A stretch of 64,000 nucleotides of DNA, from assembly GCA_045648665.1 (NCBI GenBank), contig JAZROL010000017.1:4616-68615 (forward strand), given 5' to 3'. Numbering within the stretch: position 1 is the stretch's first letter; each line of letters begins with the position of its first letter. The position numbers and the translations under genes were made by a program. This document shows positions 77-38,077 of the stretch, one piece after another. The notes below the pieces were generated by a model. The model saw only the letters and a list, made by a program, of their open reading frames with translations, did not search any database and was not told where the DNA came from. The stretch is from Candidatus Enterousia sp. (GTDB lineage Bacteria > Pseudomonadota > Alphaproteobacteria > Rs-D84).

Positions 77-167
77 GGAGATATGGCAGAGCTGGTTGAA
101 TGCGCGCGACTCGAAATCGCGTATAGTGGCAACACTATCGAGGGTTCGAATCCCCCTATCTCCGCCA
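77..167 (+). tRNA. tRNA-Ser (anticodon CGA), class II with long variable arm, CCA encoded
   Basis: Hand-folded cloverleaf: acceptor GGAGATA/TATCTCC, anticodon stem CGCGA/TCGCG with loop CTCGAAA, variable-arm hairpin TAGTG/CACTA, T-loop TTCGAAT, 3' GCCA. One A-C mismatch in the T stem. Confidence 0.85.
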
Positions 168-347
168 TAAAAATTAAATGACCTTTTGGTCATTTTATTT
201 TTATCACGAGCATAGTATTGGGATTAGAACCCGCAACGAAGTTGCTAGGTTCGACAATGAGTAGATTTCACAAATGTTAATGCAGTGAAATCGTCACGAA
301 TGCAACGCAGACACAAAGTGTCAAGTGAATCCCCCTATCTCCGCCAT
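148..347 (+). repeat. 21-nt perfect direct repeat of the tRNA-Ser 3' end (148-168 and 327-347) bracketing a ~160-bp non-coding element
   Basis: GAATCCCCCTATCTCCGCCAT occurs at both positions. The intervening DNA has a terminator-like hairpin (ATGACC tttt GGTCAT plus T-run) and motifs (CAACGAAGTTG, GGTTCGAC, AATGTTAATG) also seen in reverse orientation in the elements next to tRNA-Gln copies. Confidence 0.8.
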
Positions 348-2972: not shown

Positions 2973-3761
2973 GTGGAAAAAAAATTGATAAAATTCCCTA
3001 TCATGTCAAAAAGATTTAGAAAAATTTGGAAAAAATTTTGGACCCCTATTCTGCATAATCCAGTTATACAATGGACACTGGCGGTGATTCTGGCGGGCGC
3101 AACTTGGTTTATATTTTTGACATCTAAACGAAAATTTACAAACACTGAATCTTTGCATCAATATCGTAAAAAACCGGCGGTTTTTGTGTTTTTTCATGGA
3201 CGTTGTTCAATGTTATCACCGGTTATTAAATCCGCACGCATTCCGGGTTTTTGTGTTTCTTCCCGTCACAAAGACGGCCGTATGATGGCACGATTGCAAC
3301 GATTATTCGGCCTGCGCGCGATTTATGGTTCCACATCTGACGGCGCGGTCGCTGTTTTACGTGAAGGCGTTCGTGTTATGCGCGAAACGAATTATTCTAT
3401 GTGTGTTCCTGTTGATGGGCCATCGGGGCCGTCTATGCGGGTTCAAGACGGCGCATTATATTTTGCACGTATGACGGGCGCGCCTATTATTCCATGCTGT
3501 TTTTCTGCGTCACGTGGATTTTTTCTCAATCGTTGGGACAAATTTTTAATTCCAAAACCATTTGGCACTATAACTTGTCGAATTGGCGAACCTATATACA
3601 TAGACGCTAAATTAAAAGGTGATGAATTTGAAAAAAAGCGCGCCGAAATAGAAGAAATTATGGTTAAACAATTACGCGAAATGGACGCTGAATTTAATTT
3701 ACCTGAAATAGAACGTGGCATTCACGCAACTGAATATAAAAAACAATTGCATAAAAAATAA
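2973..3761 (+). CDS. DUF374 / lysophospholipid-acyltransferase-like protein
   Basis: N-terminal TM followed by FFHGR...SRHKDGRMMARLQRLFGLRAIYGSTSDGAVAVLREG...VDGPSGP, characteristic of DUF374. The start may be the downstream Met at 3003. Confidence 0.65.
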   Translation: MEKKLIKFPIMSKRFRKIWKKFWTPILHNPVIQWTLAVILAGATWFIFLTSKRKFTNTESLHQYRKKPAVFVFFHGRCSMLSPVIKSARIPGFCVSSRHKDGRMMARLQRLFGLRAIYGSTSDGAVAVLREGVRVMRETNYSMCVPVDGPSGPSMRVQDGALYFARMTGAPIIPCCFSASRGFFLNRWDKFLIPKPFGTITCRIGEPIYIDAKLKGDEFEKKRAEIEEIMVKQLREMDAEFNLPEIERGIHATEYKKQLHKK

Positions 3762-3766
3762 AATTG

Positions 3767-4060
3767 CTTAGGGCAGCTGACGGATGATCCTGCTGGATTG
3801 GCTCGCTCGACACTTCGTGTCGGCTGCGCGGCATTCGTTAGCACTCGAACCTCGCGTGGCTCGTTTTCGCTTACCCATAGTCGAACCAAAACAACTTCGT
3901 TGAATTGTCAAACCATCGCCACAGAACCAAAAATTCAACTCGTCATTGGACGGGTTGAATTTTTGGTTGTGCTATATGTGCAATTCGCGAGCCAATTTAC
4001 AGGAACTCTTATTCCTCGGTCAGGAAATTGAACAAGCGAAAGATAAATTAAATTTATCTG
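3767..4060 (+). repeat. B-type repeat element, copy 1 (degenerate tRNA-Gln-3'-end-like start, long hairpin, conserved tail)
   Basis: Aligns by eye with 8554-8795 (GGGCAGCTG..GGATT.GCTCGC.CGACAC....GTGTCGGCTGCGCGGCA.TCG ... CAGAACCAAAAATT.AAC...GGGTTGAATTTTTGGTTG.GCTAT.TGTGCAATTCGCGA.CC). Hairpin arms at 3925-3939 / 3954-3968. Confidence 0.75.
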
Positions 4061-4238
4061 GGTTGTATTAAATAACTTAGGGGCAGAACAACGAATATTT
4101 TTACACAAAAACAAGATTTTTCAAGTTGTTTATTTTCTAAAAATGAAAAAATATATAATGACAGCACATTTATTATAGCCAACAATGGTTAGTGAAACAA
4201 TCGTATGTTTCACAAGCTTTTTAACAAAAGGACGCGCT

Positions 4239-4487
4239 ATGGCAAAATATACAACAACAATAACAAACCCAAATATAAAAAATATAAAATATTTGTTTGA
4301 CCATCCAGATTCACAACCTGGTGATGTAGAACCGTGTGCTGGTACAGATACGGACGAACCAAGCTGTGGTATCGCGATAATGGATACTGACGGTGAATGG
4401 ATTGAAGTAAAAAAGAGAAATAAAATACCATATGGTATGTTTTTGAGATGTGCCACAAATGATGCTTACTATCGTCATATACGTTAA
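4239..4487 (+). CDS. hypothetical small protein (82 aa)
   Basis: ORF followed by a strong terminator. Start chosen at the internal Met (MAKYTTT...) of ORF 4185-4487. No recognisable domain. Confidence 0.4.
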   Translation: MAKYTTTITNPNIKNIKYLFDHPDSQPGDVEPCAGTDTDEPSCGIAIMDTDGEWIEVKKRNKIPYGMFLRCATNDAYYRHIR

Positions 4488-4499
4488 TCATTTTTTACC

Positions 4500-4540
4500 A
4501 AACATAGATTGTTGTTCAAAACCAACAATCTATGTTTTTA
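4500..4540 (+). terminator. rho-independent terminator
   Basis: Perfect 15-bp stem AAACATAGATTGTTG / CAACAATCTATGTTT with 8-nt loop, running into a T-run. Confidence 0.75.
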
Positions 4541-4566
4541 ATAATAGCGTAAGTAAAAAATAACAT

Positions 4567-5817
4567 ATGAATACAAAAATATATTATTTATCAAATGGTA
4601 TTCCGGTCGTTGTCTGCGATGCCATGTTCCATACAAACAAAATATTAATCAGTTTAAATTTTGGGGCATATGATGAAGCCCCCCAAGAATACGGTATTAC
4701 GCATTTTATTGAACATTTATTGGGACAAAGTGTCACAGGTGACCCCAGTTTCAGACATTTAAAACAAATGTTAGAAGTATTAGGCGGGTACATAAATTTA
4801 TATACCGATTATGAAAAAATCGGTTGTTTTGTGAAAGTGTTACCGGAACATTTGATTAGCGTTATAAAAATTCTCGGTTCACAAATAACAAATCCTGTAT
4901 TTGATGCTACAAGAATAGAACAAGAAAAAAAAATTATATTAGATGAGTACAGAAGAGCAGCAAATAATTCTTCTTGGGCACTTTTAAAATATAATAGTTT
5001 GTTTAAAAATACTGGTTTGGGACATTGTGTACTGGGGACGCCAGAAACTATCCAATCTTTTACATCGGACGGTTTAAAAAAATATTATTTTTCACATTTG
5101 TCAAACGATAAAATTAATATAGTTTTTGTTGGTCGGGTGCCTGATAGGCATAAATTATTGTCAGAGTTAGAAAGTGTTTTTGGTAAAATACCATTTGTGT
5201 CGTATAGGCGTGATTTTTTACCGGTTCAACAAATAATAAAAAATGATTTAAAGCCTGATGCGAAAAATGTAAAATTGGCTTTGGCTTTCGATGCAAAAAT
5301 ATCGTATGACCGTCTAAATCAAATCGCTATTGGTATATTTCGAAAAATATTGCAAGACAGGTTGATGAATGCTTTGCGTTATGAAAACGGCTTGGTATAT
5401 TCAATACAATGTTTGACAATGGGAATACATGGTGCAAAATTATACACAATAGAAACAGAAACTTTGCCTCAAGATATAGAAAGTGTTACCAGGTTTATCG
5501 CAACAGTTTGTTACGATGTTATAAATACACATCCTGTAACCACGAAAGAGTTGGAAATTGCAAAAAATGTTATAAAGTTCCAATCCGCTTGTATAATTGA
5601 TTCTATTGATAAAAGTTGTGATTTGTATTCGAAATACGTATTGCATTATAACAGTGTGTTCAATATTGAACAGGAAACACAAATATTGAACAAGATACAA
5701 TTGTCAGATATAAACAATATAGCAAAACAATTTTTTAATACCAATGTTTCCATTGTAAGCCAAGGACCAGATTTTGATTGCGATGTCATGAAAATATGGA
5801 GAGAGTTTTTTCAATAA
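4567..5817 (+). CDS. M16 (pitrilysin/insulinase) family zinc peptidase
   Basis: HxxEH zinc motif in GITHFIEHLLGQS near the N-terminus. Length and two-lobe layout fit M16. Confidence 0.8.
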   Translation: MNTKIYYLSNGIPVVVCDAMFHTNKILISLNFGAYDEAPQEYGITHFIEHLLGQSVTGDPSFRHLKQMLEVLGGYINLYTDYEKIGCFVKVLPEHLISVIKILGSQITNPVFDATRIEQEKKIILDEYRRAANNSSWALLKYNSLFKNTGLGHCVLGTPETIQSFTSDGLKKYYFSHLSNDKINIVFVGRVPDRHKLLSELESVFGKIPFVSYRRDFLPVQQIIKNDLKPDAKNVKLALAFDAKISYDRLNQIAIGIFRKILQDRLMNALRYENGLVYSIQCLTMGIHGAKLYTIETETLPQDIESVTRFIATVCYDVINTHPVTTKELEIAKNVIKFQSACIIDSIDKSCDLYSKYVLHYNSVFNIEQETQILNKIQLSDINNIAKQFFNTNVSIVSQGPDFDCDVMKIWREFFQ

Positions 5818-5837
5818 TCACAAATTTATATCAAGAA

Positions 5838-6122
5838 AGTTCGAAAATACTAACATTTTGACATTTTCTAAAACCTAACTCTCGAACTTTGTGAAAGTAT
5901 TAGAAAACAAATAAAAAACCGCTCTGGAATGAACGGTTGTCTATCTTGGTTGGGGCAGCTGGATTGTAATTCCCACTCATTAACATTCGTGGGCCCCTTT
6001 CACTGCGCTGCGCTTCGTCCCGAACCAAACAACTTCGTTGTATAGTCGAACCATCGCCACAGAACCAAAAATTAAACCCGCTTTGTGCGGGTTGAATTTT
6101 TGGTTGGGGTGTGCGGGCGAAA
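5838..6122 (+). repeat. inter-cassette repeat: M module, terminator copy, tRNA-Gln 3'-end copy, B-type element copy 2 and a G-site
   Basis: M inner inverted repeat AGTTCGAAAA...CTCTCGAACT (5838-5888). 5918-5965 matches the tRNA-Gln terminator plus 3' end at 11208-11261 (23 nt identical at 5943-5965). 18-bp hairpin 6063-6080/6088-6105. GGTTGGGGTGTGCGGGCGAAA at 6102-6122. Confidence 0.8.
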
Positions 6123-6128
6123 CGCGAG

Positions 6129-6157
6129 TTGTTATTGTGCTGTTTTTGTGATATAAT
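6129..6157 (+). promoter_or_regulatory. sigma70-like promoter inside cassette E1
   Basis: TTGTTA, 17-nt spacer, TATAAT with TG extension (tgaTATAAT). GGAGAGAG ribosome-binding site precedes the ATG at 6181. Confidence 0.55.
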
Positions 6158-6180
6158 ATCCACAAATATGGAGAGAGAAA

Positions 6181-6585
6181 ATGAAAAAAATAATAATTGT
6201 TCTTGTCAGTTGTTTTATATGTAATCCTATGTTTGCCGGTGCACTTAGTGATGCTATAAAAAAATTAGAAGAATCTGGTACTGGACAAGAATGTAGAGAA
6301 TTGAAAAATAAAATTAAAGATTTGAATAATCAATTAAACGTTGTTGAAGCCGAATACGAAACTAAATGTGTTATTGATGGTACGGGTGACATAGATACAC
6401 AAACGGATTCTGAATATGATGCTTCTGAACCAACCGAAGTTAAATGTGATGACGGTTCTGTTCCTGATATAAATGGATGTTGTACGGACGAAATTTACAC
6501 AGATATGGGACGCGAAGGTTTTAACTGTTGTCCGAAAAATGGTGGCGACTGTTTTTCTCCAATAAAAATAAATACGCAAAAATAG
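6181..6585 (+). CDS. small secreted coiled-coil / Cys-rich protein (134 aa)
   Basis: Signal-like MKKIIIVLVSCFICNPMFAGA, strong RBS and promoter. C-terminal CDDGSVPDINGCCTDE...FNCCPKNGGDC. Confidence 0.6.
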   Translation: MKKIIIVLVSCFICNPMFAGALSDAIKKLEESGTGQECRELKNKIKDLNNQLNVVEAEYETKCVIDGTGDIDTQTDSEYDASEPTEVKCDDGSVPDINGCCTDEIYTDMGREGFNCCPKNGGDCFSPIKINTQK

Positions 6586-6615
6586 TAAGTTATATATTCG
6601 TTTAATTATAACCTT

Positions 6616-6825
6616 TTTGCCCGCACACCCCAACCATTTTGAATAAAAAGACTATTCTTAGCAATGTTTGATTGGTTTTATAAGATTATTGCTAGTTCGA
6701 AAGTGTCAGCAAGAACATAAAATTTCAAAATCAGACTTTCGAACTCGCCAAACCCTTATGTTTCAAACAAAAAAATGCCCCGAAGGACATTTTGTTAACT
6801 TTGGTTGTGGTGTGTGGGCGAAACG
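6616..6825 (+). repeat. inter-cassette structured repeat (C-site, conserved linker, M module, G-site)
   Basis: TTTGCCCGCACACCCCAACC (6616-6635), AYTTTGAATAAAAAGAC linker, M inner IR AGTTCGAAAGT/ACTTTCGAACT (6694-6745), GGTTGTGGTGTGTGGGCGAAACG (6803-6825). Confidence 0.8.
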
Positions 6826-6890
6826 CAAGCTGAACAATTTGACTTTATAATAAAAATAATGATACACTTGAAATATACAAGGGTGAAAGT

Positions 6891-7499
6891 ATGGTTAAAT
6901 TTATTAAAACTTATGCATTGGAAATTTTTACAGTAATATCTATGGCGATGTTGCTGGTTGGTGGATTGATTGGTGATTTGTCAGTTATTCAAAAATTTAC
7001 TTTGGTTTATATATTTTTATTTGTTCTGCATGAATGGGAAGAAATGAAATATCCCGGTGGCTTTGCAGATTCTATTGCAAAAATGTTGGGTATAAAATTA
7101 AACAATGATATGAAACGTGCCAGTCGTATTCCAACCAGTATATTATTGCTAACATTTACTATTACACCGTTTGTTTTGCATGAATATCCAATAACAATAT
7201 TACCAATTGCATGGCTGGGATTGTTTGAAGGTTTTGTTCATATATTTACAATCCGTTTGTTTAAATACCCAAGATTTTATTCTCCTGGGTTTGTAACTGC
7301 AGAAATACAGGCTGTATTTACGATATTTGTTTTTACATATTTTGTAAGAAATGATATTGTATCATGTGGTGAATTTTTGATTGGTTTTATGGTTATGTTT
7401 GTGTGCTTTGTAATTATGCAAAAGAGCCTGACAGCAATGATAGGGTATAAATACAGCAATGTTTTCAAAGTAATAAAAAAACAATTTGCTAAGAAATAA
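6891..7499 (+). CDS. HXXEE-domain integral membrane protein
   Basis: Multi-TM protein with LHEWEEM motif in the second helix, as in the HXXEE domain family. Confidence 0.6.
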   Translation: MVKFIKTYALEIFTVISMAMLLVGGLIGDLSVIQKFTLVYIFLFVLHEWEEMKYPGGFADSIAKMLGIKLNNDMKRASRIPTSILLLTFTITPFVLHEYPITILPIAWLGLFEGFVHIFTIRLFKYPRFYSPGFVTAEIQAVFTIFVFTYFVRNDIVSCGEFLIGFMVMFVCFVIMQKSLTAMIGYKYSNVFKVIKKQFAKK

Positions 7500-7502
7500 T
7501 TG

Positions 7503-7692
7503 TTTCGCCCACACACCCCAACCACTTTGAATAAAAAGACCTGTTAGAGCAGTTTTTTATTAGTTTTATAATATTATTGCTGGTTCGAATGTTTTTAAAG
7601 TGTTATAAGCAGTTCGAAAGTGTGGATAAAGAGATAATTTTTCTAAAAATTACTTTCGAACTCGGTGAAAGTATTGCAAAACAAAAGAAAAA
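7503..7692 (+). repeat. inter-cassette structured repeat (C-site, linker, M module)
   Basis: TTTCGCCCACACACCCCAACC (7503-7523), the same AYTTTGAATAAAAAGAC linker as at 6636, M inner IR 7611-7662, tail CGGTGAAAGTATTGCAAAACAAAAGAAAA. Confidence 0.8.
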
Positions 7693-7698
7693 ATGATT

Positions 7699-8403
7699 TT
7701 ATTCATATTTCTTCAACAAATCTTTCCACGCCTGTGGCGCATCCACTTCATCAAAGTAAGCGCTTAAAAAACTAACCAAGGTTTGATGTTTTTCCTCTGC
7801 ATATTTGCGTCCTGGTTCTGTTAAGCACATATCGCGCAAATGAAAAATTTTAACAAAAAAGTGATTTACGCACGGATCGACTTTTGATTTTCTATACTTT
7901 TCGGCATCCATTTCTTCTGGAAAACAATCTGGATCAAAGAAAGGTTGACCGGTTCCAGAACGATATTCTATGCACCGTAACATACCCGTACATCCAGATG
8001 CATCACACATATCGGCATCGGATACAATGGCACCTTCAATGCCATATGCAGCAATACCCTTTAACCGTTTACTGTATCCAATAGTTTTTACAATATTGAT
8101 ACATTTTTCGCAGAATTCGGCATCAAATCCAGAACCAGACAATATGCGCTTTGTATTGATCATCAGCCGTTCAGATTCTTCACCAAACAGTTTATAATCA
8201 TCACAATCATGTAATAATGCAGCCGCCGCCACCAAATCACGATTAGCAGATGGAATTTCATCACAAATTTTCATTGCCGTATTATAAACGCGAAACACAT
8301 GTTTGTCATCATGCCCGTTAGAGTTATTTTTAAGTAATTCAATCACTGCGTTTTTTATATATTCAACACCTGTCATACAGACACCTTTATCGTTGTACAG
8401 CAT
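7699..8403 (-). CDS. HD-domain metal-dependent phosphohydrolase
   Basis: H...HD signature: DDKHVFRV ... AAALLHDCDDYK. The start may be the Met at 8376. Confidence 0.7.
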   Translation of the reverse strand: MLYNDKGVCMTGVEYIKNAVIELLKNNSNGHDDKHVFRVYNTAMKICDEIPSANRDLVAAAALLHDCDDYKLFGEESERLMINTKRILSGSGFDAEFCEKCINIVKTIGYSKRLKGIAAYGIEGAIVSDADMCDASGCTGMLRCIEYRSGTGQPFFDPDCFPEEMDAEKYRKSKVDPCVNHFFVKIFHLRDMCLTEPGRKYAEEKHQTLVSFLSAYFDEVDAPQAWKDLLKKYE

Positions 8404-8444
8404 ACTATCATAAAAAATTATATATGTCTAATTGTTATTAAAAA

Positions 8445-8795
8445 AGTTCGAAAGTGGTGAAAAATTGCCACTTTTTTAATTTCAACTTTCGAACTCGGTG
8501 AAAGTATTAGAAAACAAAAGAAAACCTGCCTTGATGGGCAAGTTTTGAAACTATGGTTGGGGCAGCTGGATTCGCTCGCACGACACATAGTGTCGGCTGC
8601 GCGGCAATCGTGACGATTGTGGTGCGTTTCACTTCCACAATCTACTGCTTGTCGAACCTTTGGTTCTCATCTCATTACCCCAGAACCAAAAATTAAACCC
8701 GTCTGATGACGGGTTGAATTTTTGGTTGGGCTATCTGTGCAATTCGCGAACCGAATTGGTTAAGATTGGGCAAGAGATTGATGAGCGGAAAGATA
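8445..8795 (+). repeat. inter-cassette repeat: M module, hairpin, tRNA-Gln 3'-end copy and B-type element copy 3
   Basis: M inner IR 8445-8495. 21 nt identical to the tRNA-Gln 3' end at 8554-8574 (TGGTTGGGGCAGCTGGATTCG). 18-bp hairpin 8684-8701/8710-8727. The tail aligns with 3961-4050. Confidence 0.8.
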
Positions 8796-8797
8796 TA

Positions 8798-9448
8798 TTA
8801 TTGCCGTCCAGATTGTGTTAAAGCATTAATTTTTAACAGCCAATCAGGAGTTTCTAGTAAAGTAAAAGTTTTCCCATCCCACCGCATTTTGATATAACCT
8901 GTGTTTGGTGTTCCTCCGTGTGCAAAATCAGTAAAATGTCGTATTAAAAAACTCATAACGCCACCATGTGTTGAAACACCGACTGTTTTTGCATCTGTAT
9001 TCTTTGCAATATTCAACATTGTATCAAGAACTCGTTTAGCAAACATATTATAGCTTTCACCGTTTTTTGGTGGTGCATAATTATCGTCAGACAAAAGAGC
9101 CAAAGGTATGTTTATCATATCTGCATTTATATCAAACTGTGTGTTAACAGGGGCATCCGTTGTTTTTACTATTTTTCCGCAAAGTGCACCAAGGTTCCTT
9201 TCTTGTAATCCTGGGTCTGTTATAATTTCTATATCTCGATTCTCAACAACAATTTTTGCTGTATCTAAAGCCCTTGATAAAGGAGAGCTGTAAATACAAT
9301 CAAATTGCACATCAGATAAATTTTTTGCTAACTGTTTTGCTTGATTAACACCATCTTGGTTTAATGGTATATCTAAAATACTTTGCACCCGTTTCTCAGC
9401 ATTGTAATCTGTCTGACCGTGTCTAAATATATAAAAAATCTTATTCAT
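8798..9448 (-). CDS. histidine phosphatase (phosphoglycerate-mutase-like) family protein
   Basis: RHG motif in IFRHGQTDYN and distal catalytic His in STHGGVM. Confidence 0.8.
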   Translation of the reverse strand: MNKIFYIFRHGQTDYNAEKRVQSILDIPLNQDGVNQAKQLAKNLSDVQFDCIYSSPLSRALDTAKIVVENRDIEIITDPGLQERNLGALCGKIVKTTDAPVNTQFDINADMINIPLALLSDDNYAPPKNGESYNMFAKRVLDTMLNIAKNTDAKTVGVSTHGGVMSFLIRHFTDFAHGGTPNTGYIKMRWDGKTFTLLETPDWLLKINALTQSGRQ

Positions 9449-9478
9449 ATAAAAACCTTTGTTGAATTATACCACAAA

Positions 9479-9609
9479 AGTTCGAAAATGACAATTTTTT
9501 GAGATTTTTTAAACCTAAACTTTCGAACTCACTGGAATTATCAGAAAACAAAAGAAAACTTGCCCCGATGGGCAAGTTTTGAAACTGTGGTTGGGGGGTG
9601 CGGGCGAAA
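9479..9609 (+). repeat. inter-cassette repeat (M module, hairpin, G-site)
   Basis: M inner IR 9479-9529, hairpin CTTGCC ccgat GGCAAG plus TTTT, GGTTGGGGGGTGCGGGCGAAA at 9589-9609. Confidence 0.8.
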
Positions 9610-9726
9610 TTCGAGCTTAAATAAAGTCAAATTTGCGCTAATTTTCTGCTCTTACATAATAAAGTTGAAAAAAACAATCTATTGGAATATAGTCACAGTA
9701 TAATGTTTAGCGAAAAGGTGAAATAA

Positions 9727-10560
9727 ATGACTTTGTTTTTTACGATTGTTTTTTTATTGTTAGTAATTGGATGGGTGTTTTATAACCTTGTAAGGGATGT
9801 TTATACATGGTCTAATCATTATGGTTGGGAAGAAAATTCGACACCAGATAAAAATGCAAAAATTCAAAATATTAGTTCCGAAAAAGTCCAATATTCAAAA
9901 AATGGTGCCAAATATAAAACAAAAATTACTTTTTCTGATGGCTTTTACTTTATTACGCATAAAACAGATAGAGAAGATGGGTTTTTAACATATAGAATTT
10001 TTATTTCCGATGAGCTTAGAGAAAAGATAATTAGTTTGGCTATAGAAAAACATAATATAGCTGTAGATAAGTTTATAAATGATAATCAACCAGTAAGGTG
10101 TGATATAAGCAAGCCTGATTGTAAAGCAAAAAAAGATATGACCAAAATAAAAATAGAAATTGTAAATGATGAAAAATACATAAATCTTAAATCTAGCGAT
10201 AGAATTAAATATCTCAACAGTTTAAAAAAACAAACCGTATCCGAATTGAACAAATTGAACAAAGTATTTGAAATAGAAAACAATAAAAGAAGAGATATAC
10301 CCGTTGATATTGCTAAATATATAAAATCCAATGATATTTCTTCATTAAAAAACGAGATAATAAAATTAGAAAATAAAAGCCTGGTTCTTGATGAATTGAT
10401 TACATTGGAAATTTACGATAAGTGCAAAAAGACAGAATATGAAGCATTGACCAAAAAATTGACTGCTGATACACAGTTAGACAAAAAAGCAAAAGATTCT
10501 ACTAATTCGGAAGAAGATACAGAGACTGAAAAGGAATATGGTTGGCAAAGTTGGGATTAG
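9727..10560 (+). CDS. membrane-anchored coiled-coil protein (277 aa), unknown function
   Basis: N-terminal TM (LFFTIVFLLLVIGWVFYNLV), then a Lys/Glu-rich heptad-like C-terminal half. TTGAAA-17-TATAGT promoter-like sequence upstream. Confidence 0.55.
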   Translation: MTLFFTIVFLLLVIGWVFYNLVRDVYTWSNHYGWEENSTPDKNAKIQNISSEKVQYSKNGAKYKTKITFSDGFYFITHKTDREDGFLTYRIFISDELREKIISLAIEKHNIAVDKFINDNQPVRCDISKPDCKAKKDMTKIKIEIVNDEKYINLKSSDRIKYLNSLKKQTVSELNKLNKVFEIENNKRRDIPVDIAKYIKSNDISSLKNEIIKLENKSLVLDELITLEIYDKCKKTEYEALTKKLTADTQLDKKAKDSTNSEEDTETEKEYGWQSWD

Positions 10561-10577
10561 TTTTTATATTTTATTAG

Positions 10578-10660
10578 TTTTGCCCGCACCCCCCAACCAA
10601 GATAGACAACCGTTCATTTCAGAGCGGTTTTTTGTTTGTTTTTCTTTCGTTTTTATCGGT
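10578..10660 (-). repeat. inverted copy of G-site, tRNA-Gln-type terminator and M-tail
   Basis: TTTGCCCGCACCCCCCAACC (10578-10598). The following 45 nt are the reverse complement of 5918-5955 and also act as a plus-strand terminator for 9727-10560. Confidence 0.75.
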
Positions 10661-10725
10661 TCGAACCTATATATAAAGATACAAAAACACGAAACAGAAG
10701 CTTGTTTGGTGAAATAAGTACTGAT

Positions 10726-11046
10726 TTATTTCTTATCATCACAAATCAATTTTGCTAATAAGCCCAACCTATTGAGATAATCAGAAAGAGCTTTCTTATT
10801 CGCTAAAACATCCGGGGTTTCTTCAAAAAAATAAACCCATTCTATATCATCAGAGCCTTTATAGGATAATTGTTTTGCTTGCTTTTGAGTGAGTCTTATT
10901 TTTCTGACTGATGGGTGGGTAGCGTAATCCTCAACCCATTCTGTTGTTCCGAGTGGTTTGTAACCGCGATTTAAAACAATATAATTATGGTTCCCTAGAT
11001 GTTTCATACAATAAGGAAAATGTGTGTAAATCAGTTCTTGTTTCAT
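10726..11046 (-). CDS. hypothetical protein (106 aa)
   Basis: Clean ORF between repeat modules. No recognisable motif. Confidence 0.4.
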   Translation of the reverse strand: MKQELIYTHFPYCMKHLGNHNYIVLNRGYKPLGTTEWVEDYATHPSVRKIRLTQKQAKQLSYKGSDDIEWVYFFEETPDVLANKKALSDYLNRLGLLAKLICDDKK

Positions 11047-11130
11047 GTTTTTCTCCTAATTTGTTTTCTACGCAATAAATATAATGATTTTTTTAGTAAT
11101 ATCAAGACAACATTAGTCGTTTTTACTAAA

Positions 11131-11240
11131 AGTTCGAAAGCGCCAATAAGAACATAAAATTTCAAGAATAAACTTTCGAACTCGATGAAAAACTTGCAAT
11201 TCTAATAAAAAACCGCCCTGAAACGAACGGTTGTACATCT
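11131..11240 (+). repeat. M module plus native tRNA-Gln terminator
   Basis: M inner IR 11131-11182. On the minus strand, hairpin AACCGTTCGTTTCAGGGCGGTT plus T-run sits immediately 3' of the tRNA. Confidence 0.75.
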
Positions 11241-11314
11241 TGGTTGGGGCAGCTGGATTCGAACCAACACTAGCGGAGTCAGAGTCCGATGTTCTACCAT
11301 TAAACTATGCCCCA
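11241..11314 (-). tRNA. tRNA-Gln (anticodon CUG), CCA encoded
   Basis: Minus-strand cloverleaf: acceptor TGGGGCA/TGCCCCA with U1-A72 as in bacterial tRNA-Gln, D stem GTTT/GAAC, anticodon loop CTCTGAC, T arm GTTGG TTCGAAT CCAGC, discriminator A, CCA. Confidence 0.85.
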
Positions 11315-11464
11315 ATGTCCGTCATATTATATATTTATTATTTCCTTTTTCAATCAAATATTTTAAGCCCTATAAAATTATCACACGCAATAAAACACAT
11401 ATGGCAAATAAAATTTTTGGTAGTATAATTATTCCGTCAAAATCTTAAACAAAAGGAACTTATT

Positions 11465-12700
11465 ATGAAAATTAAACCATTTGCCGGTATTCGCCCTCCA
11501 AAAGAATTAGTTAATGAAGTCGCTTCGCGTCCTTATGATGTTTTGAATTCAGCGGAAGCAAAAGCAGAGGCCGGTGAAAAATCACTTTTACACATTATCA
11601 AACCAGAAATAGATTTTGAACCGATTGCAGATGAACACGAACAAAAAACCTATGACAAAGCGGTCGAAAATTTCAAAAAATGGCAAGACAACGGATGGTT
11701 GGTGCAAGATGCTAAAGAAATGTATTATATTTACGCGCAAACTATGGATGGGCGTACACAATATGGTTTAGTTGCGGCCGCTAATGTTGACGATTATATG
11801 ACTGGCAAAATCAAAAAACACGAATTAACACGCAAAGACAAAGAAGATGATCGTATGATTCACGTTCGTATTCAAAGCGCAAATTTGGAACCTGTGTTTT
11901 TCGCATACCCAGATGTTGATGAAATGAATCAATTAGTTGCTGATTGGATTGCAAATCATGCCCCAGAATATGATTTTGTTGCCGAAGACGGCTTTGGACA
12001 TACTTTCTGGAAAATAGATGATGATGCAACAAATGCACACATCACCGAAATCTTTGCAAAAGTTCCTGCTTTCTATGTGGCGGACGGTCATCACAGAACT
12101 GCGGCTGCGGCACGCGTTGGCGCGGAACGTCGCGAACAAAATCCAAATCACACAGGAAACGAAGAATACAATTATTTTCTGGCGGTGATATTCCCTGAAT
12201 CCCAATTAAGAGTTATTGATTATAACCGCGTTGTCAAAGATTTGAACGGATTAACGGAAACTGAATTTTTGGAAAAATTAAAAGAATCTTTTGATGTAGT
12301 TGAAATGGGATCCGATGTTTATCATCCACACAAATTACATAATTTTGCAATGTATCTGGGTGGTAAATGGTATTCATTGACCGCGAAACCGGGCACATAT
12401 AATGACAACGATCCAATAGGTGTTTTAGATGTGACCGTATTATCTAATTTAGTATTTGATAAAATATTAAACCTTGGTGATTTGCGCACATCGAAACGAA
12501 TCGACTTTGTCGGTGGAATTCGTGGGCTTGGCGAATTACAAAAACGCGTGGATAGTGGAGAAATGGTTGCTGCTTTTGCACTGTATCCCGTCACAATGCG
12601 CCAAATTATAGACATAGCGGACACAGGCAACATAATGCCACCAAAGACAACTTGGTTTGAACCAAAATTACGCAGTGGTCTGGTGATACATAAATTTTAA
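11465..12700 (+). CDS. DUF1015 family protein
   Basis: Length ~410 aa and conserved ADGHHR motif (FYVADGHHRTAAA), typical of DUF1015. Confidence 0.8.
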   Translation: MKIKPFAGIRPPKELVNEVASRPYDVLNSAEAKAEAGEKSLLHIIKPEIDFEPIADEHEQKTYDKAVENFKKWQDNGWLVQDAKEMYYIYAQTMDGRTQYGLVAAANVDDYMTGKIKKHELTRKDKEDDRMIHVRIQSANLEPVFFAYPDVDEMNQLVADWIANHAPEYDFVAEDGFGHTFWKIDDDATNAHITEIFAKVPAFYVADGHHRTAAAARVGAERREQNPNHTGNEEYNYFLAVIFPESQLRVIDYNRVVKDLNGLTETEFLEKLKESFDVVEMGSDVYHPHKLHNFAMYLGGKWYSLTAKPGTYNDNDPIGVLDVTVLSNLVFDKILNLGDLRTSKRIDFVGGIRGLGELQKRVDSGEMVAAFALYPVTMRQIIDIADTGNIMPPKTTWFEPKLRSGLVIHKF

Positions 12701-36976: not shown

Positions 36977-38077
36977 ATGCAAAAGTATTTAAACCAAATT
37001 TTGTGTGGTGATTGCATAGATATTATGCGAAAGATGCCTGACGCATCTGTTGATGCCGTATTTGCAGATTCCCCGTACAATTTACAACTGGGCGAAAAAA
37101 CACTTTACAGACCCGAAGATCAAACCGCCGCACGTGCAGTCCGTGACAGCTGGGATGCGTTTGAATCAAACGACAAATATGATGAATTCACACGCGATTG
37201 GATGCGTGAATGTAAACGCATACTTAAACCAGACGGTGCAATGTGGGTTATTGGTTCTTATCATAACATATTTCGTGTTGGCGCAATATTACAAGACATG
37301 GGTTTTTGGATTTTAAATGACATAGTTTGGGTAAAAACAAATCCTATGCCTAATTTTCGTGGCACACGCTTTACAAACGCACATGAAACTTTGATTTGGG
37401 CGACACCTACAAAAACCGGGAAATACACATTTAATTACGAAACTATGAAAAAATTAAATGGTGGAAAACAAATGCGTTCGGATTGGGATTTAAATATTTG
37501 CCTGGGTGAAGAACGCGTAAAGGACAAAGACGGCAAAAGCCTGCACAATACACAAAAACCAATGGATTTGTTGCGTCGTGTAATTTTGTCTTCAACAAAA
37601 CCTGGCGATATAATTTTGGATCCTTTTGTTGGTTCTGGAACAACCGCCGCGGTTGCAAAAGAATTAGGACGTCAATTTATCGGTATAGATCGCGAACCTA
37701 TATACGTAGACGCTGCGCGCGAACGTGTTAATAATATAGTCCCTGTTGATTTATCAGACATAGAAGTCACTGCACCAAAACGTGATGCAATAAAGATTGC
37801 TTTCCGTGAATTGATTGATGCGGGATTACTTTACACAGGACAAACATTGGTTGGCCCACGTGGTGATCGCGTTATGATTACTCACGACGGACAATTAACA
37901 CATACTTTGTACGGCAAAGCATCTATCCACATAATGGCTGCGCGCATACAACACAGTGTCAGTTTTAATGGTTGGGATTATTGGTCTGCGGAAAAAGCAG
38001 ACGGCACATTGGTTGCCATTGACGAATTACGCAAATATTTACGCAACATAAAACAGAATATGAAACGCGCCGCTTAA
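36977..38077 (+). CDS. ccrM: CcrM-like N6-adenine DNA methyltransferase (beta class)
   Basis: Motif IV ADSPYNL near the N-terminus, AdoMet motif DPFVGSGTTAAVA later, ~80-aa C-terminal extension as in CcrM. Confidence 0.9.
   Translation: MQKYLNQILCGDCIDIMRKMPDASVDAVFADSPYNLQLGEKTLYRPEDQTAARAVRDSWDAFESNDKYDEFTRDWMRECKRILKPDGAMWVIGSYHNIFRVGAILQDMGFWILNDIVWVKTNPMPNFRGTRFTNAHETLIWATPTKTGKYTFNYETMKKLNGGKQMRSDWDLNICLGEERVKDKDGKSLHNTQKPMDLLRRVILSSTKPGDIILDPFVGSGTTAAVAKELGRQFIGIDREPIYVDAARERVNNIVPVDLSDIEVTAPKRDAIKIAFRELIDAGLLYTGQTLVGPRGDRVMITHDGQLTHTLYGKASIHIMAARIQHSVSFNGWDYWSAEKADGTLVAIDELRKYLRNIKQNMKRAA

Follow-up and report, generated by a model that had tools for sequence, protein, structure and literature searches.

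How did a row of single genes, punctuated by copies of the same non-coding sequence, come to lie against the 3' end of a tRNA gene? The locus belongs to a Candidatus Enterousia-like alphaproteobacterium of the order Rs-D84, a gut bacterium with a small genome, and was analysed within a window of 64 kb (the whole stretch of DNA, 64,000 nucleotides). The array spans 3767-11240 between DUF374 and DUF1015, on the 3' side of tRNA-Gln(CTG). This interval is probably an accretion island at tRNA-Gln(CTG), made up of miniaturised derivatives of large serine recombinase (LSR) elements that are exchanged by site-specific recombination, with the LSR acting in trans.

Genes, units and repeats of the interval

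The initial annotation described eight ORFs between DUF374 and tRNA-Gln(CTG), with recurrent repeats among them. Gene calls at 2973-11314 bear out the eight ORFs, and the repeats are real and positioned as described. Pfam confirms the M16 peptidase, the HD protein and the histidine phosphatase, while the HXXEE assignment (19.2 bits) falls below the cut-off of 25, and no family was found for the 82-, 134-, 277- and 106-aa ORFs.

2973-3761, plus strand: DUF374 gene, conserved left flank of the island
4239-4487, plus strand: 82-aa ORF, U1 cargo, no Pfam family
4567-5817, plus strand: M16-family peptidase, U1 cargo (Pfam M16 and M16_C)
6181-6585, plus strand: secreted Cys-rich 134-aa ORF, U3 cargo, no Pfam family
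6891-7499, plus strand: HXXEE-like membrane protein, U4a cargo, Pfam match below cut-off
7699-8403, minus strand: HD-domain gene, U4b cargo (Pfam HD)
8798-9448, minus strand: histidine phosphatase, U6 cargo (Pfam His_Phos_1, 2.4e-42)
9727-10560, plus strand: coiled-coil membrane ORF of 277 aa, cargo, no Pfam family
10726-11046, minus strand: 106-aa ORF, part of U7 cargo, no Pfam family
11241-11314, minus strand: tRNA-Gln(CTG), array anchor (ARAGORN; Rfam tRNA, 67.4 bits); recombination core formed by its 3' end CCCCAACCA (which reads TGGTTGGGG on the plus strand, at 11241)
11465-12700, plus strand: DUF1015 gene, conserved right flank of the island

The array comprises seven to eight units joined at the short core TGGTTG, the complement of the CAACCA at the tRNA-Gln 3' end. 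A unit runs from one core up to the next and holds a P' arm, usually a single cargo gene with its own promoter, and then a P arm, the M module. The P' arm resembles the 3' part of the tRNA and takes one of three forms: a tRNA copy with a B body; GGGTGTGCGGGCGAAAC; or TGCTATCTGTGCAATTCGCGA with a relic LSR tail. The limits are U1 3964-5946, U2 5947-6100, U3 6101-6801, U4a 6802-7690, U4b 7691-8553, U5 8554-8722, U6 8723-9587 and U7 9588-11240. Terminator-like hairpins are abundant, with 16 observed against 5.1 ± 2.2 expected.

The tRNA 3' sequence TGGTTGGGGCAGCTGGATT is present at 5947, 8554 and 11241. As proposed earlier, the copy at 8554-8574 equals 11241-11261 at 21 of 21 positions, and homology extends through the tRNA terminator (5910-5965 against 11204-11259, 91%). 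The three B elements of the initial annotation are found at 3782-3971, 5947-6109 and 8554-8730, and an additional B-like element lies beyond the region it considered, at tRNA-Ser. A 20-nt direct repeat, GAATCCCCCTATCTCCGCCA (148-167 and 327-346), delimits this fourth copy on both sides and is the tRNA-Ser(CGA) gene's own 3' end.

168-346, minus strand: fourth B-like element, immediately 3' of tRNA-Ser(CGA) (77-167; nhmmer E = 3.6e-13)
3767-3963, plus strand: B1, gene-less, distal end of the array; tRNA copy degraded, with an interruption of ~17 nt
5947-6100, plus strand: B2 (U2), gene-less; 19-nt tRNA 3' copy, body, bidirectional terminator 6075-6093
8554-8722, plus strand: B3 (U5), gene-less; 21-nt tRNA 3' copy, structured body, bidirectional terminator 8696-8715

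Apart from the B copy at tRNA-Ser, all repeat families in the window are confined to 3767-11261. This distribution bears on the idea of a generic intergenic REP, MITE or terminator-promoter module that is dense here by chance and takes no part in moving genes. In its favour, a terminator lies in the M module, which also overlaps a promoter, and type-2 units have MITE-like terminal inverted repeats. However, the remaining ~56 kb hold no copies except at the second tRNA 3' end, copies in other genomes are tied to tRNA 3' ends, and no target-site duplications stand beside the inverted repeats, which leaves this idea scarcely credible. The repeats do not form a genome-wide REP or MITE family: in the window they occur only at two tRNA 3' flanks, and in Rs-D84-like genomes most non-coding copies face a tRNA 3' end.

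M modules, B elements and the ends of LSR elements

An inverted repeat had been placed at six positions. Five copies of GTTCGAAA-N-TTTCGAAC are exact (6695, 7612, 8446, 9480 and 11132; shuffles give 0 expected), while the copy at 5838 is imperfect. The module at 7611 lacks both terminator and core.

5838-5946, minus strand: M module 1; imperfect inverted repeat, tail, terminator 5917-5938
6694-6801, minus strand: M module 2; inverted repeat, diverged tail, terminator 6772-6793
7611-7690, minus strand: M module 3, truncated to inverted repeat and tail
8445-8553, minus strand: M module 4; inverted repeat, tail, terminator 8521-8546
9479-9587, minus strand: M module 5; inverted repeat, tail, terminator 9555-9580
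11131-11240, minus strand: M module 6; inverted repeat 11131-11181, tail, tRNA terminator 11211-11232

Identity among the M modules is 75-90%; the arms of the inverted repeat stay intact and the intervening loop drifts. The hairpin doubles as a terminator for any tRNA-like end upstream, and the M5 inverted repeat overlaps the His_Phos promoter (TTGTCA-17-TATAAT, with TG).

The origin of these modules is suggested by tile L012, in which a 501-aa ORF (domains Resolvase, Recombinase and Zn_ribbon_recom) abuts a tRNA-Gln whose 3' end is the same as that in the window. The ORF reads across the core and terminates as ..SWLGQLDSNQH within the tRNA complement. A profile of LSR 3' ends matches M modules at E = 9.5e-8 to 3e-4. 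M6 (translation NGCTSWLGQLDSNQH) aligns over the entire profile at E = 9.5e-8, M4 shares 39% identity with LSR residues 450-498 (tblastn), and M1 translates as SIRK..MNGCLSWLGQLD, a relic of the LSR C-terminus. Judged by sequence, the M module is what remains of the 3'-terminal ~110 nt of an LSR gene. An intact 5.9-kb LSR element emerges when the contiguous tiles L076 and L012 are joined; at its far end stand a complete B element and then an inner TTGGTTG. Past this inner core the translation reads WLTIVNEFRTTYYNDIMN, which resembles the C-terminal tail WLGIVDDLRTVYYADIMN of the L124 LSR. An intact LSR element has a left end homologous to B3. Alignment shows M and B to be homologous to the two ends of intact LSR elements, and the likely recombinase is the LSR that such elements encode at the same site in related genomes.

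Two short in-frame stretches that follow cores are relics of C-terminal LSR extensions:

3964-4071, plus strand: core TGGTTG and type-3 P' arm, relic tail WLCYMCNSRANLQELLFLGQEIEQAKDKLNLSGLY*
8723-8821, plus strand: core TGGTTG and type-3 P' arm, in-frame relic LSR C-terminal tail WLGYLCNSRTELVKIGQEIDERKDILLPSRLC*

LSR homologues without a tRNA fusion end in the tail W-L-x-L-V-D-x-L-R-T, a pattern matched by the window tails WL.(C/Y).CNSR(A/T).L, which show third-codon variation across copies. Counting from TGGTTG on the sequences places GAAC(C/T) at +21 to +25 in the tRNA; in type-3 arms it stands at +26 to +30. LSR attP half-sites are reportedly shifted 5 bp outward relative to attB, the same shift as in the type-3 arms. 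Canonical LSRs recombine attP with attB only. The internal junctions of the array look attP-like (P-core-P'), and for excision or integration at them either a directionality factor or a relaxed specificity like that of Ccr would be required.

LSR homologues retrieved without use of the inverted repeat retain it with compensatory changes. Paired cells amount to 66.9% against 58.3% in shuffles and the covariation score is 0.276 against 0.157, neither value being reached in 500 shuffles; slid partners, as a control, pair at 27-47%. The conserved inverted repeat may be a cis-acting site of the LSR system.

No LSR or other recombinase or integrase was found in the array region or the 64-kb window, and the reported absence of an integrase stands for that window. 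A different recombinase, whether integron-type, Xer-like, another tyrosine enzyme or a small serine invertase, could have the TGGTTG core or the inverted repeat as its target, in which case the relics of the LSR would be bystanders. A small resolvase lies inside the L002 island, a tyrosine integrase is encoded 6.5 kb from the L123 LSR, and an invertase is suggested by single genes that lie, in either orientation, between inverted cores. This proposal is nevertheless highly improbable: at every junction both arms go back to the ends of LSR elements, the LSR ORF spans the core, the window encodes none of these enzymes, and the inverted repeat does not match the attC consensus.

Units shared between genomes

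The DUF374-DUF1015 interval is hypervariable, with quite different gene content in relatives whose DUF1015 protein is 92-93% identical. The cassette-level variation anticipated by the initial annotation is found; gene order is not common to related genomes. Other species have near-identical units at tRNA loci other than this one, and the repeats mark the breakpoints. Such recurrence is seen for three window units at 92-98.6% identity, against only 74-84% DNA identity for the flanking core genes DUF374 and DUF1015. U3 is 98.6% identical to its copy in L106, which adjoins tRNA-Gln(TTG), and the identity stops at TGGTTG on either side. L026 matches U4a (6801-7670) at 97.6% identity, the identity of U4b with L004, L071 and L107 is 92-94%, and ~20 more units of 0.7-1.9 kb are shared between other genomes. 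Such units, with breakpoints on repeats, imply that cassette-sized units move. The tRNA association extends to Rs-D84-like genomes, where 55 of 80 non-coding M copies have a facing tRNA 3' end in the same 8-kb tile (Gln-CTG 30, Gln-TTG 19, Met 3, Glu 3); the tRNA-Met 3' end is also CAACCA.

The array might instead be inert debris of full-size LSR elements that integrated serially, each losing its recombinase and most genes by deletion, with no cassette-sized movement and with similar units elsewhere reflecting recent whole-element transfer and later decay. Frameshifts and stop codons interrupt the degraded LSR sequence of the M modules and tails, longer C-terminal relics exist (L054 spans residues 440-501), M3 is truncated and the 64-kb window lacks a recombinase. 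Against this stands U3, already reduced and LSR-less at another tRNA locus in another species, at 98.6% identity with identical ends; U4a, U4b and the ~20 other units behave likewise. Debris of this kind is unlikely because independent decay would not yield identical boundaries, and the inverted-repeat arms are preserved while the loop drifts.

Were units exchanged by RecA across the ~100-bp repeats (M, B and site) on either side of each gene, these repeats would be portable homology rather than recombinase sites. The mutual identity of the M modules would permit it, and many shared segments end within M, past the inverted-repeat arm, in the tail or in the loop, as in L107. Several junctions, however, drop from >98% identity to no similarity across a core of 6-7 nt, which is too short for RecA. 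Unrelated P and P' arms assort near-freely at the core (17 of 21 possible combinations among 139 classified junctions), and the repeats descend from both ends of a site-specific element. As a general account, homologous shuffling is improbable. For a second class of breakpoints, just past the inner inverted-repeat arm (ACTTTCGAACTCG|), homologous recombination between M modules is no worse a fit than site-specific recombination.

The first suggestion, that serial site-specific integration at a tRNA 3' end yielded integrase-less single-gene units, is supported. In an accretion island exchanged by an LSR in trans, units would have been inserted, and would still be exchanged, through site-specific recombination in the last ~20 nt of the tRNA. 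The catalyst of mobilisation would be an LSR whose autonomous element resides at another place in the cell or in the population. The P arm may be kept because it must terminate and insulate transcription at any landing place. The crossover point varies: cassette junctions lie at TGGTTG, B junctions in the T-loop, 19-21 nt from the 3' end. Circular or excised cassette forms were not seen among the sequences analysed.

Among the closest precedents are tycheposons, SCC composite islands and the Dehalococcoides ssrA islands. The last stand in tandem between 20-bp repeats of the ssrA 3' end, and an integrase is missing from about half of them; the 3' end of their CcrB-like LSR gene always overlaps attL (PMC3146451). 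The near-identical cassettes in other species therefore mark the array as an unusually miniaturised form of a known tRNA-anchored gene-exchange hotspot, in which one-gene cassettes are bounded by leftovers of serine-recombinase elements.

Inverted modules around three genes

The module was thought to keep one orientation throughout, but three partial inverted copies (site, terminator and tail) are found at 6614-6693, 7502-7592 and 10577-10642, so that three genes on the plus strand sit between 23-bp inverted repeats, which simple integration does not explain. The site GGTTGGGGNGTGNGGGCGAAA occurs in six copies against 0.01 expected.

6101-6123, plus strand: core TGGTTG and type-2 arm; U3 start; left inverted repeat of the Cys-rich cassette
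6614-6693, plus strand: right inverted repeat of the Cys-rich cassette; reversed type-2 site, CAACCA at 6631, reversed P arm
6802-6824, plus strand: core TGGTTG and type-2 arm; U4a start; left inverted repeat of the HXXEE cassette
7502-7592, plus strand: right inverted repeat of the HXXEE cassette (partial module)
9588-9610, plus strand: core TGGTTG and type-2 arm (GGGGGTGCGGGCGAAAT); U7 start; left inverted repeat of the coiled-coil cassette
10577-10642, plus strand: right inverted repeat of the coiled-coil cassette (partial module)

The copy at 7502-7592 holds a reversed type-2 site, CAACCA at 7519, a reversed P arm and half an inverted repeat. That at 10577-10642 holds a reversed type-2 site, the CAACCA core at 10594, a terminator and a tail, and is 96% complementary to 5904-5955 over 52 nt.

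Organization of the tRNA-Gln array

The array occupies 3767-11240, between the DUF374 gene (2973-3761) and the tRNA that anchors it. Gene calls bear out the eight open reading frames that the initial annotation had placed here, with five genes on the plus and three on the minus strand. The units measure 0.15-1.9 kb and hold none to two genes each, and promoter-like sites lie inside cassettes, for example at 6129-6157 and 9494-9466. G+C content is 31-35% in six of the seven 1-kb windows of 4001-11000; the seventh, 8001-9000, has 38%, and most of the remaining sequence of the window has 36-41%. The low G+C of the island fits a foreign origin.

Features of the window
148-346: B-like mini-element at tRNA-Ser(CGA), with a terminator, a body of ~130 nt and a 20-nt direct repeat of the tRNA-Ser 3' end
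3964-4071 and 8723-8821: tails reading WL.(C/Y).CNSR(A/T).L..GQEI..KD.L*, in frame with TGG TTG
6101-6636, 6802-7524 and 9588-10599: type-2 cassettes, each with a single gene
11241-11314, minus strand: tRNA-Gln(CTG), the anchor, with the array on its 3' side

The core of each junction is TGGTTG, the complement of the tRNA-Gln 3' end CAACCA. It joins a P arm, the M module of ~110 nt (inverted repeat, tail and terminator; copies M1-M6), to a P' arm, which is a tRNA copy followed by a B body, a type-2 arm, or a type-3 arm with the relic tail of a large serine recombinase (LSR). The inverted repeat described initially, GTTCGAAA-N-TTTCGAAC, is present in five exact copies where none is expected, with an imperfect sixth at 5838, and the reported tRNA copies are equally real, as TGGTTGGGGCAGCTGGATT is found at 5947, at 8554 and in tRNA-Gln itself. 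The boundaries of the units are marked by copies of the tRNA 3' end in direct orientation, 19-21 nt long at 5947 and 8554, and by cores of 6-9 nt at 3964, 6101, 6802, 8723 and 9588. The site GGTTGGGGNGTGNGGGCGAAA has six copies against 0.01 expected, and terminator-like hairpins are enriched threefold (16 versus 5.1 expected). When the region was compared with the whole window by BLAST, a self-comparison of the kind that had been proposed, every repeat pair fell inside 3792-11261.

The claim of a single module orientation stands for only three of six sites. The others, at 6615, 7503 and 10578, are inverted, each together with its terminator and tail, so that 23-bp inverted repeats enclose each of three genes, those for the Cys-rich, HXXEE and coiled-coil proteins. 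A profile search with the B elements, the gene-less units of the array (B1-B3), also found a fourth copy that the first reading had not seen, at 170-346, directly 3' of tRNA-Ser(CGA). Its ~130-nt body shares homology with the tRNA-Gln B bodies, so this gene-less unit is not confined to one kind of tRNA. Across B copies the motif TACTCATTGTCGAACC is conserved and, by eye, the body's first hairpin shows covariation (CGACAC/GTGTCG, CGGCAC/GTGCCG and GGCAT/ATGCC in 8554-8722 plus 30 copies), and RNAalifold on those 30 copies returned the terminator hairpin only. B could act as a structured RNA or as a site where a protein binds. An identity as a tmRNA or tRNA-like gene was dropped, as ARAGORN calls two tRNAs and no tmRNA, and an Rfam scan of 3000-12000 by E-value found tRNA as the only known RNA family.

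The window holds no LSR gene, only relics of its last ~40 codons, and its units are thus derivatives rather than elements. One tyrosine recombinase query and one small serine recombinase query found no match in the 64 kb, and ten further open reading frames of the window contain no recombinase domain. An N6/N4 DNA methylase with a RAMA domain lies at 36977-38077, with no obvious restriction partner among the open reading frames scanned; it is unrelated to the array.

A generic REP or MITE family, the alternative named at the outset, would scatter such repeats over the genome. Their distribution excludes it: within the 64 kb, copies occur only at the 3' flanks of two tRNAs, and in other genomes they are again tRNA-linked. 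A scan for the inverted repeat, one genome per species, found at least 119 loci in two classes. Copies of the non-coding class lie 55-58 nt after tRNA-Gln(CTG), tRNA-Gln(TTG), tRNA-Met or tRNA-Glu in Rs-D84-like genomes and have the layout of the M module; among the matches listed, 55 of 80 have a tRNA within the same 8-kb tile. One genome can carry M modules at three tRNA loci, as RUG13568 does (tiles L009, L013 and L113). For the coding class the distance is 80-83 or 103 nt, the tRNAs are of many kinds and come from several phyla, and the repeat falls within an open reading frame, at its 3' end, that runs antisense to the tRNA.

A recombinase gene that reads across its attachment site

The open reading frame at L012:1853-3358, in a related genome, encodes Resolvase, Recombinase and zinc-ribbon domains. 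The C-terminus of this LSR is ..NGCQSWLGQLDSNQH, in which WLGQLDSNQH is encoded by the complement of the tRNA-Gln 3' end. LSR genes stand next to a tRNA in related genomes at L012/L076, L057, L065 and L122. Loci of this kind gave no useful second copy of the tRNA 3' end within the 8-kb tiles, which are too short to include one. Throughout the family the reading frame crosses the codon TGG, the complement of CCA. Where the gene adjoins a tRNA it continues as tRNA-encoded ..DSN.., and otherwise it enters a tail with the consensus W-L-x-L-V-D-x-L-R-T. The integrated form of the L012/L076 LSR accordingly ends in ..WLGQLDSNQH and its reconstructed attP form in ..WLTIVNEFRTTYY.., and in general the last 10-45 residues differ between the two forms (L012:1853-3358; L124:3103-4734; LSR-family proteins P0121-P0239). 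This C-terminal exchange could serve as a switch of LSR activity or directionality.

L076 and L012 adjoin each other on a single contig. Once joined, they contain two small units followed by an intact element of 5.9 kb, in the order outer copy TGGTTGGGGCAGCTG, complete B with its hairpin, inner TTGGTTG, several open reading frames, LSR and tRNA-Gln; one of the open reading frames has a weak, below-cut-off match to a replication-protein family. After the inner core the translation reads WLTIVNEFRTTYYNDIMN, which resembles the C-terminal tail WLGIVDDLRTVYYADIMN of the L124 LSR. It follows that the LSR C-terminus is coded across the att site and swapped on integration.

The array of the window is built from the same ends. 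A profile of the LSR 3' end aligns end to end with the tRNA-adjacent M module (E = 9.5e-8) and also matches the other M modules, and the translation of M1 still reads SIRK..MNGCLSWLGQLD. The tails at 3964-4071 and 8723-8821, which vary at third codon positions between copies, are read here as probable relic tails of a second LSR subfamily. A tblastn similarity of the M16 peptidase C-terminus to LSR proved spurious, the convincing alignment being confined to the M-module part.

The inverted repeat lies within the LSR gene. LSR homologues chosen by protein similarity alone (24-68% identity to the reference) carry it at the same codons with different sequences, namely TTCAAAC/GTTTGAA, TTCCAAG/CTTGGAA, TTCAAAGAT/ATCTTTGAA and TTCGCAA/TTGCGAA. 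In 25 of these homologues, 66.9% of cells pair versus 58.3% in shuffles, and the covariation score is 0.276 versus 0.157; none of 500 shuffles reaches either observed value, and slid-partner controls pair at 27-47%. Among viral contigs (L127-L190) the repeat has arms of 9-13 bp about 30 nt apart and lies about 100-160 nt before the LSR stop codon. Judged by these sequences, the inverted repeat is a selected structure, which may act as an RNA or DNA hairpin or as a symmetric LSR-binding site. Its arms resemble the tRNA T-arm (TTCGAAC); compared by eye with the T-arm of the target tRNA, about six agree and three differ, which is suggestive only. In the M modules the arms are kept (five exact, one imperfect) while the loop drifts, and this suggests that the inverted repeat is needed in cis.

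Many viral contigs end exactly at the LSR gene, or the gene runs into tRNA-Pro, -Arg, -Asp, -Val or -Ala. Inside the conserved KPFD codons, in the last ~70 nt of the gene, is a strong GC-rich hairpin, for example GGCCCTTCG..CGAAGGGCC (L143-L190), and on the tRNA strand it occupies the place expected of the tRNA terminator. The same DNA is apparently both LSR coding sequence and antisense tRNA terminator. A search of the phage collection gave two close LSR relatives only, both in the integrated form beside a tRNA, and thus no attP form. Compared with phage LSRs of the classical type, such as TP901-1, this LSR reaches only ~24% identity. In five viral contigs (L151, L154, L161, L181 and L190) the LSR is followed by approximately the 3' half of tRNA-Pro and then by unrelated sequence, and ARAGORN calls no tRNA there. 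This arrangement suggests that crossover in the tRNA-Pro LSR subfamily takes place not at the 3' end of the tRNA but further into it, perhaps close to the anticodon loop.

Exchange of cassettes and their junctions

The host belongs to a clade with much variation at this locus. DUF1015, whose gene (11465-12700) lies beyond tRNA-Gln, has thousands of close homologues in uncultured gut Alphaproteobacteria, and the DNA matches carry the names Candidatus Enterousia and relatives, of the order Rs-D84; their genomes are under 1 Mb (PMC12306168). Two proteins of the window had no exact counterpart on record. The order of genes differs among relatives, a shared order being what the initial annotation had named as a refutation: in three of them (L001-L003) DUF1015 is 92-93% identical as protein, and quite different genes, including autotransporters and a TPR protein, fill the DUF374-DUF1015 interval. 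One of the three carries a small resolvase in the same island, its DUF374 lying outside the stretch compared. The layout, with variable DNA on the tRNA 3' side, is the same in relatives. Their tRNA-Gln(CTG) genes (L001:8437-8510, L002:9067-9140 and L003:5035-5108) are only 78% identical to 11241-11314; the two alleles differ with compensatory changes in the stems, and the repeat copies of each genome match its own allele. In L003 the tRNA and island are inverted between DUF374 and DUF1015, and in L002 the tRNA has the same inverted orientation. In most of what a metagenome scan with DUF1015 returned, relatives at 70-77%, DUF1015 does not adjoin tRNA-Gln, and the scan yielded no strain-level series of presence and absence. 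An insertion in L093 relative to L036 was set aside as a core-linked event, since it lies on the tRNA 5' side and is unrelated to cores.

Units of the array recur in other genomes at higher identity than the flanking DUF374 and DUF1015 DNA, which is only 74-84% identical.

Array units with close copies elsewhere
6092-6810: Cys-rich unit; L106, the genome of another species, directly beside tRNA-Gln(TTG); 98.6% identity
6801-7670: HXXEE unit; L026; 97.6% identity
7691-8497 to 8529: HD unit; L004, L071 and L107; 92-94% identity

Identity between the Cys-rich unit and L106 breaks off at TGGTTG on either side. About twenty further segments, 0.7-1.9 kb long, are common to genomes at 90-99% identity, and the ends of shared segments gather at two places, TGGTTG/CAACCA and the position immediately following the inverted repeat's inner arm. 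To judge from these copies, it is units of cassette size that move. A pure graveyard of decayed elements, in which nothing was transferred after reduction, does not explain why identical reduced units occur at different tRNA loci and in different species.

In 139 junctions classified by the sequence flanking TGGTTG, P and P' arms occur in 17 of 21 possible pairings, the pattern that recombination at the core would give. Homologous exchange between M modules may well play a part, as the class of breakpoints just after the inverted-repeat arm would indicate, but it does not account for switches at a 6-nt core between unrelated arms. A different recombinase is the less economical explanation because every junction is built of LSR-element ends. 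The preferred agent is the LSR: we infer that it acts in trans on the array junctions, with the inverted repeat as its probable cis site. The breakpoints place the crossover in TGGTTG or the T-loop and no more precisely; it would fall in TGGTTG at cassette junctions and in the T-loop at B junctions, as in Dehalococcoides.

Type-2 cassettes form a distinct arrangement, with terminal inverted repeats of 23-24 bp, TGGTTG(G/T)GG(T/G)GTG(C/T)GGGCGAAAC. Besides those of the window, inverted type-2 pairs bracket single genes of 134-578 aa at no fewer than 14 loci.

Type-2 cassettes in other genomes
L009, L011, L025, L042, L058, L060, L068, L079, L085, L089, L102, L113 and L114

The two repeats of one unit co-vary (L025, L068 and L102). 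In 17 single-gene segments between inverted cores, the gene points one way in 12 and the other way in five. No target-site duplication is present at the flanks of type-2 cassettes, which are P arms of several types, and the window contains no invertase. The cassettes look like invertible or bidirectionally insertable units.

Proposed mechanism and relation to known systems

In the most likely mechanism, autonomous LSR elements would integrate within the last ~20 nt of tRNA-Gln. The incoming element would supply the new 3' flank, and the end of its LSR gene would double as the tRNA terminator. Derivatives that lack the LSR but keep both arms, the M module as P and a P' arm, would persist and pile up between the tRNA and DUF374, usually with one self-expressed gene and a terminator each. 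The anatomy of the units, their homologies, their exchange between species and the assortment of their arms are matters of observation. A difficulty for this mechanism is that classical LSRs are not known to join two attP-like sites; the enzyme would have to be relaxed in specificity, as Ccr is, or be helped by a directionality factor.

A bolder reading, which is possible but on balance doubtful, is that Rs-D84 practises integron-like gene capture with an LSR in place of IntI. Cassettes would consist of a gene, an attP-like junction and a cis-acting inverted repeat; an LSR in trans would excise, insert and invert them at tRNA-Gln and tRNA-Met ends, and tail exchange would switch its activity or directionality.

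The array shares with integrons and CALINs its gene-sized cassettes, a pool common to species, a structured inverted-repeat site after each cassette and the ability of an array to exist without its recombinase. Membership was nevertheless rejected on three features (IntI/attI/Pc, attC cores, and cassette orientation and promoters). The attC R''/R' cores are RYYYAAC and GTTRRRY, and integron cassettes are mostly promoterless and in one orientation. On inspection, the arms AGTTCGAAAGT / ACTTTCGAACT misfit R''/R', GTTCGAA having C where R is required. Unlike integron cassettes, those of the array have their own promoters and terminators, lie in both orientations and are anchored at a tRNA end instead of attI.

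Among described systems the closest appears to be the Dehalococcoides ssrA islands, followed by SCC/pseudo-SCC composite islands and tycheposon islands. The ssrA islands stand in tandem 3' of a tRNA-like gene, with ~20-nt repeats of its 3' end (McMurdie et al. 2011, PMC3146451). Their recombinase, DsiB, is a CcrB-like LSR whose reading frame always overlaps the att site (attL) and runs into the RNA gene, and about half of the islands have no integration module and were proposed to be cis-mobilisable (PMC3146451). An insertion point in the T-loop, matching the B junctions, and an LSR C-terminus across the att site are common to both systems. The Dehalococcoides islands differ in their tmRNA anchor and in their size, ~10-20 kb with many genes, and the LSR-relic module, gene-less B units and inverted-repeat cassettes are not described there.

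The SCC/pseudo-SCC elements that Ccr recombinases insert at rlmH in staphylococci likewise line up one after another behind a conserved gene, at its 3' end, with short direct repeats between them, and ccr-less elements are thought to be moved in trans. They differ from the present array in having a protein-coding target, lengths of 10-60 kb, CcrAB or CcrC, and no tRNA mimicry; examples of composite islands are available (10.1101/336396). Tycheposons of Prochlorococcus occupy hypervariable tRNA-adjacent islands in streamlined genomes (Hackl et al., bioRxiv 10.1101/2020.12.28.424599). They lie side by side with only partial tRNA copies between them, leave degenerate remnants and scattered partial tRNAs, and mostly use tyrosine recombinases, large serine recombinases being the minority (10.1101/2020.12.28.424599). 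Unlike the units here they are multi-gene and have replication modules, and integrase-less single-gene arrays with a relic module are not described. In the ICESt1/ICESt3 family, integrase-less, att-flanked elements accrete in tandem and can be moved by a related integrase (PMC5704250); that family differs in its tyrosine integrase, its target fda, its kb-scale elements and the lack of tRNA-mimic arms.

The SSV1-type integrases of archaeal fuselloviruses also have a reading frame that spans the attachment site, and integration alters the encoded protein. Those are tyrosine recombinases of archaea, split near the 5' end of the gene, whereas the exchange here affects no more than the final ~10-45 codons of a serine recombinase. 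The 178-bp repeats of E. coli tyrT, the precedent first cited, similarly contain a tRNA 3' end with no mobile genes nearby. They differ from the array, by description only, in carrying no cargo, no recombinase link and no exchange between genomes.

What is new here is the use of ordinary tRNA anchors, single-gene or gene-less units with an LSR-relic module, the covarying repeat in the LSR gene, the inverted-repeat cassettes and the host clade. The array extends serine-recombinase accretion of the Dehalococcoides/SCC style to ordinary tRNA genes and cassette-sized units. It would give reduced gut genomes a compact route to a flexible gene pool, a tRNA-anchored slot in which accessory genes common to species are stacked: secreted, membrane and hydrolase proteins here, autotransporters in relatives. 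It also points to a widespread LSR family whose reading frame spans its own att site and whose 3' coding region holds a tRNA terminator and a covarying inverted repeat. Finally, the paired natural half-sites, tRNA ends as attB-type and P' arms as attP-type, are candidate attP/attB pairs for LSR genome engineering. In LSR attP half-sites the distal motif lies ~5 bp further from the centre than in attB half-sites. Counted by hand from the core, GAAC(C/T), the assumed zinc-ribbon contact, occupies +21 to +25 in the tRNA and, in type-3 arms, +26 to +30.
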